Positions 13,777 to 23,875 of a DNA stretch of 64,000 nt are shown here, piece after piece. Origin of the DNA: Bacteroidota bacterium (lineage in GTDB: Bacteria; Bacteroidota; Bacteroidia; Bacteroidales; JACABE01); contig JBAXNW010000002.1 in assembly GCA_037133555.1 (NCBI GenBank), forward strand, positions 49,637 to 113,636. Direction: 5' to 3'. Within the stretch, counting starts at the first letter, position 1, and every line of letters begins with the position of its first letter. The notes under the pieces were generated by a model, which was not told the DNA's origin, ran no database searches, and saw nothing but the letters and a program-made list of their open reading frames with translations. The position numbers and the translations under genes are program-made.

Positions 13777-15114
13777 TTAAAGAATACCTTGATCTAACAT
13801 TGCATTGGCTACTTTTAAGAAACCTGCAATATTTGCACCTTTTACATAATTTACATATCCGTCAGCTTGTTTTCCGTGTTTTACGCAAGCAGCATGGATA
13901 TTTACCATAATGCTATGTAATTTTTCGTCAACTTCCTGAGCAGACCAATTGTATTTTAATGAATTCTGTGACATTTCTAAACCTGAAGTAGCAACACCAC
14001 CTGCGTTAACTGCTTTTCCAGGTCCGAATAACACTTTATTTTCCAAGAAAACTTCAACAGCTTCAGGAGTTGAAGGCATATTAGCACCTTCAGCAACGCA
14101 GATACAACCGTTTTTAACAAGAATTAAAGCATCTTCTTTGCTTACTTCGTTTTGAGTAGCACAAGGTAAAGCTACATCACATTTAACTTCCCATGGACGT
14201 TTTCCTTGGTGGAATTGTGCGTTAGGAAATTCATAAGAATATGGCTTAACGATATCTTGGTTAGAAGCTCTTAATTCAAGTAAATAATCAATTTTAGCTC
14301 CTGAAATACCATCTGGATCATAAATATAACCATCAGGTCCAGAAATAGTAACAACTTTACCACCTAATTCAGTAACCTTAATGGCTGCACCCCAGCATAC
14401 ATTACCAAAACCTGATAAACATACTGTTTTGCCTTTGAATGATTCACCTTTTGTGGCTAACATTTCTTTTGCAAAATATACTGCACCAAAACCAGTAGCT
14501 TCTGGACGAACCAAACTTCCACCCCAATTGATACCTTTACCTGTAAGAACACCAACGTGTTCCTTGGTTAATTTTTTATACATACCAAACATGAAACCGA
14601 TTTCACGTCCACCAACACCGATATCACCAGCAGGAACATCCGTTTCTGGTCCTATCATTCTCCATAATTCTAACATGAATGATTGGCAAAAACGCATTAC
14701 TTCATTGTTTGATTTTCCTTTAGGATCAAAATTTGAACCACCTTTTCCACCACCCATAGGCAAAGTAGTCAAACTATTTTTAAAAATTTGTTCGAAACCT
14801 AAAAATTTCAAAATACTTAAGTTAACACTAGGGTGAAAACGCAAACCACCTTTGTAAGGTCCTATTGCATTGTTGAACTGTACTCTGTAACCTAAGTTAA
14901 CCTGTACTTTACCATTATCATCAACCCAAGGCACTTTAAATGCTAAAAGTCTGTCTGGTTCAACCAATCTGTCGATAATACCAGCTGCTTCGAATTGTGG
15001 ATTTTCGTTGACCACTTCTTCTAATGATTCTAAAACTTCGCGAACTGCTTGTAGATATTCTACTTCACCTGGGTGTTTTTTCTCCAGGTCGTTCATTATT
15101 TTCTCTAAGTTCAT
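13777..15114 (-). CDS. glutamate dehydrogenase, paralogue 1 (dinucleotide fingerprint GFGNVCWG / SGPDG)
   Basis: Hexameric GDH signature [10 protein letters not shown] with the catalytic Lys region. 445 aa. Roughly two-thirds identical by eye to the second copy. Confidence 0.95.
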   Translation of the reverse strand: MNLEKIMNDLEKKHPGEVEYLQAVREVLESLEEVVNENPQFEAAGIIDRLVEPDRLLAFKVPWVDDNGKVQVNLGYRVQFNNAIGPYKGGLRFHPSVNLSILKFLGFEQIFKNSLTTLPMGGGKGGSNFDPKGKSNNEVMRFCQSFMLELWRMIGPETDVPAGDIGVGGREIGFMFGMYKKLTKEHVGVLTGKGINWGGSLVRPEATGFGAVYFAKEMLATKGESFKGKTVCLSGFGNVCWGAAIKVTELGGKVVTISGPDGYIYDPDGISGAKIDYLLELRASNQDIVKPYSYEFPNAQFHQGKRPWEVKCDVALPCATQNEVSKEDALILVKNGCICVAEGANMPSTPEAVEVFLENKVLFGPGKAVNAGGVATSGLEMSQNSLKYNWSAQEVDEKLHSIMVNIHAACVKHGKQADGYVNYVKGANIAGFLKVANAMLDQGIL

Positions 15115-15191
15115 TTTTAAATGTTTAATTGTTTAAATGTTTATATACAAAAACTTGTTTAAGAAATAACAGTGTTAATTAAATAACAATG

Positions 15192-15199
15192 CAAAATTA
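15192..15199 (-). promoter_or_regulatory. candidate -7 box TAATTTTG for GDH-1
   Basis: CAAAATTA on the plus strand is TAATTTTG on the minus strand. It lies 78 nt upstream of ATG 15114. Confidence 0.4.
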
Positions 15200-15261
15200 C
15201 ATTTAATTAATTGACTAAAAAAAAAATTACCCAATTATTTTTCAAAATTATGAAAAATAAT

Positions 15262-15278
15262 TTAAGTGAAACACTTAA
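15262..15278. promoter_or_regulatory. palindromic operator-like site TTAAGTG-AAA-CACTTAA
   Basis: Perfect 7+3+7 inverted repeat, about 63-79 nt upstream of the candidate GDH-1 -7 box. Same core as the two palindromes at 22356-22407. Confidence 0.55.
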
Positions 15279-15299
15279 TTTTAAAAAAAATTAGTTGAA

Positions 15300-22353: not shown

Positions 22354-22361
22354 CAAAATTA
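22354..22361 (-). promoter_or_regulatory. candidate -7 box TAATTTTG for the 1274-aa gene
   Basis: CAAAATTA on the plus strand, 68 nt upstream of ATG 22286. Overlaps the left arm of the 23-bp palindrome. Confidence 0.4.
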
Positions 22362-22378
22362 AGTAAATTACTTAATTT
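22356..22378. promoter_or_regulatory. perfect 23-bp palindrome AAATTAAGTAA-A-TTACTTAATTT (core TTAAGTA-N3-TACTTAA)
   Basis: Base-by-base check gives 11+1+11 perfect dyad symmetry, in the divergent region between the 1274-aa gene and GDH-2. Confidence 0.6.
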
Positions 22379-22388
22379 GATATTTATT

Positions 22389-22407
22389 TTTAAGTATTAT
22401 ACTTAAA
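22389..22407. promoter_or_regulatory. perfect 19-bp palindrome TTTAAGTAT-T-ATACTTAAA (core TTAAGTA-N3-TACTTAA)
   Basis: 9+1+9 perfect dyad. Its centre is 31 bp from the centre of the first palindrome, about three helical turns. Confidence 0.6.
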
Positions 22408-22528
22408 TAAATTTACGATAAACACGTAATTTATTAAAAATCAATACATTTTTTATTTTAAAACATTTTTTTTTTATAACATTGTAGCTGTATTCAAACT
22501 ATTTTTATTAACTAAAATAATATATAAA

Positions 22529-23875
22529 ATGAACACTGCATTAACACAAAAATTAGATCAGTTTATGGCAAAAGTTATTGCCAAAAACCCAAGCGAAGTC
22601 GAATTTCATCAAGCTGTAAGAGAGGTTGTTGAAACACTACTTCCTTTTATCGAAGAAAATCCTAAGTACAATGGAATTCTTGATAGAATGGTAGAACCTG
22701 AGAGAGTTATTATCTTTAGAGTCCCTTGGATGGATGATAAAGGAAATTTTCAAATCAACAGAGGGTTCAGAATTGAGATGAACAGTGCAATTGGACCATA
22801 CAAAGGTGGTTTACGTTTTCATCCAACTGTAAATCTTGGAATCCTGAAATTTTTAGCTTTTGAACAAGTGTTAAAAAACAGTTTAACTACCCTCCCAATG
22901 GGTGGTGGAAAAGGTGGTTCTGATTTCGATCCTAAGGGAAAATCTGACAACGAAGTAATGAAATTTACCCAAAGTTTTATGCTTGAACTACAAAGACATA
23001 TCGGGCCTGATACGGATGTTCCTGCTGGGGATATTGGTGTTGGTGGTCGTGAAATAGGTTTTATGTTTGGTCAATACAAAAGAATAAGAAATGAATTTAC
23101 AGGTGTACTTACTGGAAAAGGTTTAGAATGGGGAGGTAGTTTGATACGTCCTGAAGCAACTGGTTATGGCCAGGTTTATTTTGCAAACGAAATGTTGTCA
23201 ACAAAAGGTGATGGTTTTAAAGGGAAAATTGTAGTAGTTTCAGGTTCAGGAAACGTAGCCCAATATGCAACTCAAAAAGCAACAGAATTAGGTGGAAAAG
23301 TTGTAACTATGTCCGATTCTAATGGATATATTTACGATGCTGCTGGTATTACTGCTGAGAAATTAGCCTTTTTAATGGATTTAAAAAATGTTAAACGTGG
23401 TCGTATTTCGGAATACGCTAAAAAATACAACTGCGAATATGTTGAAGGAAAAACTCCTTGGGGTGTTAAATGTGATATTGCTTTACCAAGTGCTACACAA
23501 AATGAATTGAATGGTGAAGATGCCAAAATATTGATTGCAAATGGATGTAAGTGTGTTTCTGAAGGAGCCAATATGCCTTCTACCCCAGAAGCTGCAGAAT
23601 ATTTTGTAGAAAAGAAAATATTGTATGGCCCAGGTAAAGCTGCAAATGCTGGTGGCGTTGCTACTTCTGGCTTGGAAATGTCTCAAAACTCAATGCGGTT
23701 AAGCTGGACAAGAGAAAGAGTTGATCAGGAACTTCACAATATTATGATTAACATTCACAAAACTTGTGTAAAATATGGTAAAGAAGCTGATGGAACAATC
23801 AATTATGTTAAAGGTGCTAACATTGGTGGATTTGTAAAAGTTGCAGATGCAATGATGGCGCAAGGACTTGTTTAA
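22529..23875 (+). CDS. gdhA: glutamate dehydrogenase, paralogue 2 (enterobacterial NADP-GdhA-like fingerprint GSGNVAQYA / SDSNG)
   Basis: [10 protein letters not shown] catalytic region; 448 aa. The [14 protein letters not shown]...TMSDSNG nucleotide-binding segment resembles E. coli GdhA. Confidence 0.95.

Follow-up and report, generated by a model that had tools for sequence, protein, structure and literature searches.

We analysed a 64,000-nucleotide stretch of DNA (hereafter the window) from a Bacteroidota bacterium of the order Bacteroidales (lineage JACABE01; GenBank assembly GCA_037133555.1, contig JBAXNW010000002.1, positions 49,637 to 113,636 of the forward strand), in which two genes for very large proteins lie between two genes for glutamate dehydrogenase (GDH). 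In the Bacteroidota, which are dominant in the gut and in many anoxic habitats, GDH is the chief enzyme of ammonia assimilation and of glutamate catabolism. The list of open reading frames (ORFs) gives, in order on the minus strand, the longer of the two large genes (long), the shorter (short), and gdh-1, with gdh-2 divergent from long. An earlier note on this DNA, made from the letters alone, had described this layout with a terminator at its end, and both are as it described them:

22529..23875, plus strand: gdh-2, 448 aa; ELFV_dehydrog and ELFV_dehydrog_N (Pfam)
18462..22286, minus strand: long paralogue, 1274 aa; ORF list and Pfam
15300..18287, minus strand: short paralogue, 995 aa; ORF list, Pfam and AlphaFold2 (AF2) model
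13777..15114, minus strand: gdh-1, 445 aa; ELFV_dehydrog and ELFV_dehydrog_N (Pfam)
13727..13756, minus strand: intrinsic-terminator-like hairpin of 13 pairs with a T run, directly 3' of gdh-1

The gene pairs are separated by 242 AT-rich bp (gdh-2 and long), 174 bp (long and short), and 185 bp (short and gdh-1), and no terminator-like site was found in the 174-bp or the 185-bp gap. Both gdh products are full-length hexameric family-I glutamate dehydrogenases (Pfam E 1e-50 to 1e-92) and are 64% identical to each other. The gdh-1 product is of the PRK14030 subfamily type (NCBIfam NF010633, 825.8 against a cut-off of 743), while gdh-2 is of the NADP-specific type by sequence model (NF006929, 768.2 against 536). 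Short and long encode paralogues that align collinearly, with 40% identity across 972 residues (E = 0), and the five motifs that had been quoted for the pair all fall within this alignment. They have in common, from the N terminus, an aspartate-less receiver (REC), a canonical REC, a DUF5752-like linker, a PPDK_N ATP-grasp, and a 170-aa C-terminal domain; long has in addition, at its N terminus, a PAS domain followed by an unclassified 'AWQYPE...EGPFLKEER' module. The domains are placed as follows:

17778..18206, minus strand: short, receiver 1, residues ~28-170; REC fold
17328..17771, minus strand: short, receiver 2, residues ~173-320; with an inserted helical hairpin
17052..17324, minus strand: short, DUF5752-like region, residues ~322-412; invariant H360 and H365
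15825..16979, minus strand: short, PPDK_N ATP-grasp, residues 437-821; Pfam E 7.8e-44
15318..15824, minus strand: short, C-terminal domain, residues ~822-990
22014..22268, minus strand: long, PAS domain, residues 7-91; Pfam PAS_9 E 7e-10
21501..21884, minus strand: long, unclassified sensor-like module, residues ~135-262; motifs AINQTT...AWQYPE...EGPFLKEER
20478..21359, minus strand: long, tandem receivers, an aspartate-less REC and then a canonical REC (E463 D464 / D534 / K587)
19017..20129, minus strand: long, PPDK_N ATP-grasp, residues 720-1090; Pfam E 2.5e-33
18477..18977, minus strand: long, C-terminal orphan domain; by paralogue alignment

The core of both proteins is a PPDK_N-type ATP-grasp, as the earlier note had proposed. 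PF01326 scores 150.7 bits on short and 116.2 bits on long against a cut-off of 27, over a near-full profile in both (positions 3-327 of 328 in short). The top Foldseek match of the short model in the PDB is HpeI (E 1e-10), which is the stand-alone ATP-grasp subunit of the dikinase HpeHI, and the best PDB match of the family profile is the ATP-grasp of Listeria rifampin phosphotransferase (RPH), with RSS..ED..FAG..TY and QE aligned. We examined conservation, and modelled short, from 61 sequences that represent both paralogue families; the AF2 model of the full short protein has a predicted local distance difference test score (pLDDT) of 82.2. The conserved ATP-grasp motifs are GGK, RSS..ED..FAG..T, QE, EIEFA, and LQI[RK]P, and the invariant residues are GGK441, R532-S-S, E538-D539, Q604-E605, E778/E780, and Q799, which we take to have the nucleotide- and metal-binding roles of their counterparts in pyruvate, phosphate dikinase (PPDK), the phosphoenolpyruvate (PEP) synthase PpsA, and RPH. 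A phmmer search of the C-lobe of the ATP-grasp against the PDB gave no matches, so the catalytic residues of this lobe are assigned solely through the Pfam match and motif conservation. Only ~170 residues remain after the ATP-grasp in each protein, and neither has a Pfam match to the phosphohistidine swivel (PF00391, GGxTSH) or the TIM barrel (PF02896) of PEP synthase and PPDK.

Input of the two-component type comes by way of the receivers, and in receiver 2 the full phospho-acceptor set is invariant (E180 D181, D250, S284/S285, K303). Receiver 1 of short is without the conserved phospho-acceptor Asp, the acidic pair, and the Lys, and is an aspartate-less receiver. The Pfam Response_reg matches are weak (33.6 and 21 bits); the AF2 model shows the CheY-like (beta-alpha)5 fold in two successive beta-alpha-beta units, and the Foldseek matches include PleD (E ~1e-7) and many other REC structures, with TM values of up to 0.79 on the target. 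This arrangement resembles PleD in that tandem receivers precede an enzymatic output and the acceptor residues are missing from one of the two receivers, but it differs in having the aspartate-less receiver first and in having an ATP-grasp, not GGDEF, as the output. Between the receivers and the ATP-grasp, DUF5752 matches only at the Pfam threshold. For the N-terminal part of long, the earlier note had suggested PAS and GAF-like domains. The PAS domain is real (PAS_9, 39.5 to 42.4 bits against a gathering score of 27) and is restricted to close relatives (at least ~73% identity), whereas the GAF label is unsupported, as residues ~135-262 had no Pfam match at E<=10 and no PDB match with a 26-sequence profile. 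The AWQYPE-type module is tandemly duplicated in some long-type homologues (A4 consensus), and in others (L147-L164; surveyed loci are cited by L numbers) it is preceded by PAS-like units in variable number.

The strongest conservation in the family is found in the last ~170 residues, where the invariant motifs are GNG, Y.L.GPGRWG..D..LG.PV.W..IS, E907, and D.S.G.H922-F-F.N.TS. Modelled alone, this C-terminal domain folds with good confidence in AF2 (pLDDT 86.9, predicted template-modelling score 0.86). Nevertheless, Foldseek of the domain against the PDB and BFVD gave nothing better than E 0.03 or TM 0.3, Pfam gave no match to C-terminal fragments at E<=5 for either paralogue and none common to 35 diverse members at E<=10, and a profile of the domain against PDB sequences gave spurious longin matches only. 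Among 1.84 billion representative proteins, a profile search located the domain in 2024 clusters (50% identity). It lies at the C-terminal end of the protein in 147 of the best 150 matches, and the other three are proteins of 1.5-1.65 kaa in which two stretches match; full-length matches are ~950-1560 aa, and many shorter ones are probably fragments. The Ser/Gly-rich, invariant S-x-G-x-H-F-F loop that carries H922 has a pLDDT below 50 in the full-length model, which is compatible with, and no proof of, a mobile catalytic loop.

We also considered a diverged PEP-utilizers swivel as the identity of the C-terminal domain, on the strength of a by-eye likeness between 'ILV..DPW..IVE..G[TS]H' and 'ILV..T.P.W..IVTe.GG.TSH'. 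This reading was rejected, since it found no support in the Foldseek, Pfam (E<=5 and E<=10), and PDB profile searches; an hhalign comparison of the domain with the PPDK from L050 gave a probability of 0.4%, a weak test in which the template was a single sequence. With no swivel relative by structure or sequence, we conclude that the C-terminal domain is not a PEP-utilizers swivel, and the claim that both proteins are without swivel and barrel holds.

Relatives of the two proteins are numerous. In a set of 5.8 billion proteins we counted at least 8000 relatives of short and at least 3000 of long, and those among the matches listed are nearly all from Bacteroidota metagenome-assembled genomes (MAGs), with one cluster labelled a Fibrobacter MAG by NCBI. 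The architecture had been thought to be without a characterised member, and that stands; as an unrecorded architecture it does not, because the same 'REC-PPDK' response regulators were already catalogued, and called 'Bacteroides-like', in a census that also reported REC-PPDK proteins in Heimdallarchaeota (Galperin et al. 2018, PMC5847659), and aspartate-less receivers have been found to be enriched among PPDK-type effectors (Maule et al. 2015, PMC4395418). These two censuses record the domain combination only, and give no function, description of the C-terminal domain, or gdh linkage. Our literature searches found no functional study of REC-PPDK family members, no matches for DUF5752, nothing relevant that joins PPDK_N with response regulators, and nothing relevant on regulation of Bacteroides GDH by proteins of this type. 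As far as the literature found goes, two things are new, namely the orphan domain at the C terminus and the gdh linkage described below, which is deep and isozyme-specific. At one distant locus (L168; ENA ERZ508603, contig NODE_6, 496 kb) the neighbours include an ELP3-type radical SAM protein, an MJ1316 domain, and an Lhr helicase, which hint at a non-Bacteroidota, possibly archaeal, host.

The earlier note had left it to a wider survey whether the gdh genes are conserved neighbours, and we found that they are. For short, the survey covered 80 species-representative genomes that encode a protein of 63-91% identity to it. The commonest neighbour family was gdh (24/80 loci), with a gdh-1-type gene directly downstream in 13 of the 60 loci that had enough downstream sequence and within 10 kb in 16 of these 60. 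For long, we surveyed 80 metagenome loci at 60-76% identity, and a gdh-2-type gene divergently adjoins long in 37 of the 60 loci that had 2.5 kb or more of upstream sequence; the divergent gdh persisted after dereplication, in 30/51 lineages at 85% nucleotide identity and 22/42 at 75%. Isozyme typing by best match was consistent across loci, in that the gene divergent from long is of the gdh-2 type and the gene downstream of short is of the gdh-1 type. The complete bracket also occurs in L001, L139, L143, L155, L160, L161, and L162, and L145 keeps the bracket order up to the end of its contig, which truncates the downstream gdh. The genes are also found in other orders: nine loci have short and gdh reading one way and long, divergent from that gdh, the other way; L036 and L129 have short-gdh-long; and in L081 and L166 gdh is divergent from long, which is followed by nuoE, nuoF, a GltD-like/molybdopterin gene, rubrerythrin, and short.

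The linkage extends to distant relatives. Where the family members are only 30-44% identical to the window proteins, gdh lies within two genes in 5 of 7 loci (X, family member):

L168: glnA (reversed), gdh, gdh, X, nuoE, nuoF, gltD-like
L169: X, RR-GerE, gdh, ferredoxin, sigma-54 activator
L170: gdh (reversed), long-type, Fe-S protein, short-type, crp (reversed), gdh
L172: gdh, X, PPDK_N+nucleotidyltransferase
L174: X, crp (reversed), gdh

The two distant loci without gdh, L171 and L173, both have short flanks. A genome of 3-5 Mb has one or two gdh genes, so that chance adjacency would be ~0.1-1%, a rough estimate and not a computed control. We conclude that gdh linkage runs family-wide, across deep divergence, and is clearly not confined to this genome. 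Its persistence at 30-44% identity, in varied orders and orientations and in a MAG named Fibrobacter, is hard to explain without selection for proximity.

Several other genes recur beside the family. The second recurrent neighbour is a NAD(P)H-ferredoxin oxidoreductase cluster of NuoE-like, NuoF-like, and GltD-like proteins, with or without a molybdopterin domain, which lies beside or between long and short in L081, L166, L168, L099, L102, L125, L143, and L162. In the window, the corresponding genes are ~40 kb from the cassette:

62470-62988, plus strand: NuoE-like gene
63159-63998, plus strand: NuoF-like gene, extending past the window end

CstA is also among the recurring neighbours. Crp/Fnr-family regulators (cNMP_binding with HTH_Crp_2) stand between the family member and gdh, divergent from gdh, in L170 (16743-17807) and L174 (3730-4842). 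Genes of nitrogen metabolism, with a bearing on ammonia, are also met repeatedly: glnA in L168, amt and D-serine dehydratase in L167, serine dehydratase and ornithine cyclodeaminase in L084, and aminotransferases in L165. The theme of these neighbours is the glutamate/2-oxoglutarate/ammonia/NAD(P)H node. In L172, the family member, itself preceded by gdh, is followed with an overlap of 8 nt by a gene (11068-14385) whose 1105-aa product joins PPDK_N to a Pol-beta-type nucleotidyltransferase domain (NTP_transf_2).

Within the window, Pfam found no HisKA/HATPase_c domain and no classical transcription factor in the 47 scanned ORFs that lie beyond the cassette and encode 150 aa or more, in agreement with what had been read from the letters; the scan omitted 14381..14836 and 31408..31866 (both plus strand), each of which lies within a longer annotated gene on the opposite strand. 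No cognate histidine kinase was thus found in the scanned window ORFs, and near the relatives kinases are sporadic (L165, L167, L172). The sole DNA-binding protein among these ORFs is sigma-54 (rpoN, 3424..4890, minus strand), ~9 kb from the cassette; a sigma-54 activator is located after gdh in L169. Two window ORFs had no Pfam match at E<=1e-4, one of 1528 aa (52670-57256, minus strand) and one of 665 aa (24902-26899, minus strand).

We found several repeats and palindromes in the intergenic regions:

15262..15278, unstranded: palindrome TTAAGT-N5-ACTTAA, upstream of gdh-1
22359-22375 and 22390-22406, unstranded: two TTAAGT-N5-ACTTAA palindromes, in the 242-bp divergent region between gdh-2 and long
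15173..15188, unstranded: palindrome TGTTAATTAAATAACA (TGTTA-N6-TAACA), 59 nt upstream of the gdh-1 ATG
18287..18396, unstranded: tandem repeat of an 8-bp unit, TTATTGAG x 14, which occupies the long-short gap as far as the short-gene ATG

TTAAGT-N5-ACTTAA has three perfect copies in the 64 kb, all inside the two gdh control regions. With up to one mismatch there are 4 matches against 0.81 expected by chance, the fourth copy (22168-22184, one mismatch) lying within the start of the long coding region. The palindrome is kept upstream of gdh in close relatives (L001-L004, L139) and is a candidate operator common to both isozyme genes. TGTTA-N6-TAACA, noted in L001, L002, L004, L011, L013, L025, L068, L072, L079, L094, and L160 besides the window, looks like a Crp/Fnr-type box and is a second candidate operator. 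The 2.5 Mb of loci contain 27 copies, 13 of them 43-68 nt upstream of a gdh start, and it is also found just downstream of the short-type gene in several gdh-less loci. The gdh-1 gene probably has its own promoter. Given the palindromes shared by the two gdh control regions and the Crp/Fnr-type regulators near gdh, we consider that a conventional DNA-binding factor, recognising palindromes of both regions, probably governs gdh transcription. K-mer footprinting of 38 gdh/long divergent regions gave no clear common motif, only AT-rich words and a weak GCAATATTAA (8/38), and a scan for sigma-70-type promoters, which is uninformative for Bacteroidota, gave 48 matches against 53.5 in shuffles. The TTATTGAG repeat can also be read as a 16-mer x 7. 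In the 91%-identical relative L001 only ~20-30 bp stand in its place, and variation in repeat number could alter expression of the short gene.

Judged by their domain content, the two large proteins are paralogous signalling enzymes of the response-regulator type, members of a large, uncharacterised, mainly Bacteroidota family. Since relatives stand beside gdh even at ~35% identity, they probably act in nitrogen/redox control of GDH. We favour phosphorylation-gated, ATP-dependent control of GDH, either post-translational or metabolic, as their function, at a probability of roughly 0.5, with a mechanism that would run as follows. An unlinked histidine kinase or a small phosphodonor would phosphorylate Asp250 in short and Asp534 in long, and in long the PAS domain and sensor module may add a ligand input. 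Phosphorylation would remodel the receiver pair, perhaps as in PleD, and thereby switch on the ATP-grasp, which would use ATP to phosphorylate or otherwise charge a target that is bound or relayed by the C-terminal domain, with His922 as a candidate carrier. The most likely target would be either the GDH enzyme or some metabolite of the glutamate/2-oxoglutarate/NAD(P)H node. In this way the pair could tune the NADP-type (gdh-2) and PRK14030-type (gdh-1) isozymes post-translationally to nitrogen, carbon, and redox status, while gdh transcription would be handled separately by the palindrome-recognising DNA-binding factor. We favour post-translational control because the proteins look like signal transducers, have no DNA-binding domains, and each track one GDH isozyme.

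Several points weigh against this interpretation. Approximately 40% of the long-type and 75% of the short-type loci have no gdh within 10 kb, and since a single order supplied most of the surveyed loci, inherited synteny could account for part of the linkage. The promoter- and operator-like elements of gdh-1 itself, together with the Crp-type regulators of L170 and L174, mean that transcriptional co-regulation alone might explain the adjacency. The substrate, the phospho-carrier, and the partner are each proposed from sequence, no protein of known function is homologous to the C-terminal domain, and the role of His922 as a carrier is a guess. The 'covalent-modification module' that the earlier note suggested therefore stays a hypothesis.

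The alternatives differ mainly in what the ATP-grasp is taken to do. Database names, together with the PPDK_N domain, would make the proteins true PEP synthases or pyruvate phosphate dikinases; the relatives are entered as 'phosphoenolpyruvate synthase', 'pyruvate, phosphate dikinase', 'PEP/pyruvate-binding domain-containing protein', or 'CheY-like'. By domain content and NCBIfam scores, the synthase and dikinase names are wrong. What the proteins have in common with PpsA and PPDK is the N-terminal nucleotide-binding ATP-grasp (PF01326). They differ from both in having neither the PEP-utilizers swivel nor the PEP-utilizers_C TIM barrel, and because the swivel-His domain and the barrel are missing, and the protein ends ~170 aa past the ATP-grasp, they are not enzymes of this kind. 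In line with this, NCBIfam models for PEP synthase and PPDK score 28-50 bits against cut-offs of 598-883 (at best 50.5 against 883 for NF004881 and 28 against 739.75 for TIGR01418). We regard this reading as refuted by the domain content. It follows that thousands of database records under these two names are mis-named. A more serious alternative, possible though on balance unlikely, is that the proteins are receiver-gated small-molecule dikinases that phosphorylate a metabolite of the glutamate/2-oxoglutarate node, with GDH as a pathway neighbour and possibly with a swivel-His partner encoded elsewhere. By analogy with the conversion of pyruvate to PEP, the substrate might be a 2-oxoacid, and the partner might act in trans as in HpeHI or phenylphosphate synthase. 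To our knowledge, no such phosphorylated metabolite has been described, which counts against this view. In its favour, the C-terminal domain could bind substrate, and the closest structures are ATP-grasps of small-molecule dikinases, HpeI and rifampin phosphotransferase. RPH, HpeHI (HpeI, PDB 9GOJ), and phenylphosphate synthase have a PPDK_N-type ATP-grasp in common with the large proteins, with RSS..ED..FAG..TY and QE as the shared motifs. There are two-component dikinases in which the ATP-grasp is a subunit of its own, but enzymes of the RPH/HpeHI type require a T/SxxGGxxxH phospho-His swivel and a substrate-binding domain (PMC12167813), and neither is present in cis in the large proteins, which have two receivers and the orphan C-terminal domain instead. 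Nor was a swivel-His or PEP-utilizers partner gene noted in the neighbourhoods listed with Pfam or among the recurrent neighbour clusters of short, and a regex scan of all loci gave one unrelated PPDK. Sensor and receiver domains are also more typical of regulators than of pathway enzymes.

The remaining alternatives concern the link to GDH and the chemistry. Adjacency could reflect nothing but shared transcriptional control or inherited synteny, the proteins being general carbon-starvation or redox signalling enzymes without direct action on GDH. The palindromes common to both gdh control regions, the Crp-type regulators that adjoin gdh in two distant loci, the many loci in which gdh is absent, and the recurrence of other neighbours, namely the NuoEF/GltD-like cluster and CstA, all agree with this. 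We nonetheless consider it rather unlikely, because of the persistence of linkage in distant relatives, in varied orientations and orders, and in the Fibrobacter-named MAG. Alternatively, the proteins could be ATP-sensing pseudoenzymes or scaffolds, in which nucleotide binding would signal energy charge without phosphotransfer and output would pass through protein-protein contacts of the C-terminal domain. Such a role would fit a protein with an aspartate-less receiver and no recognisable acceptor domain, yet across both paralogue families the ATP-grasp keeps its nucleotide-binding and catalytic motifs without variation, which is unusual for a pseudoenzyme and makes this highly improbable.

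Returning to the phosphorylation-gated control of GDH that we prefer, there are precedents for it in outline. GlnE (the adenylyltransferase of glutamine synthetase), AceK, and PSRP/PDRP are covalent regulators of central nitrogen or carbon enzymes. The likeness is one of logic, in that an ATP-using enzyme under the control of a signal has a key metabolic enzyme as its target or as its genomic partner; by sequence and fold the large proteins are unrelated to these regulators, and action on GDH is here hypothetical. In its strongest form, the proposal would be that the proteins are a new class of covalent regulator, a receiver-gated ATP-grasp 'GDH kinase/charging enzyme' that switches the NADP- and NAD-type isozymes on or off post-translationally and in which an S-x-G-x-H-F-F phospho-carrier replaces the swivel, a form that we hold to be doubtful. 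In a bolder variant, the ATP-grasp would phosphorylate an internal His (H922, or H360/H365) that feeds the protein's own receiver Asp, making up a phosphorelay independent of histidine kinases. Older work on Bacteroides gives leads, which we do not count as evidence. Baggio and Morrison, in the title of a 1996 report, are said to tie GdhA activity in B. thetaiotaomicron to trans-acting genes beside gdhA, and a ~3-kb segment downstream of gdhA was reportedly needed for activity and not for transcription; Yamamoto et al. in 1987 reportedly described reversible in-vivo inactivation of B. fragilis GDH. Either the covalent-regulator or the internal-phosphorelay form, if true, would explain the old report of trans-acting genes for GdhA activity. 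A gdh-X-X-gdh cassette at BT1970-BT1973 of B. thetaiotaomicron was considered and rejected, as BT1971 is a catalase.

We know of no explanation of how the two GDH isozymes of the Bacteroidota are switched at the molecular level, and this analysis gives a concrete, genetically testable candidate for their control. If the link to GDH is direct, the family would represent a new class of enzymatic output for two-component signalling, together with a new mode of nitrogen/redox control and a use of the dikinase ATP-grasp without a swivel domain.

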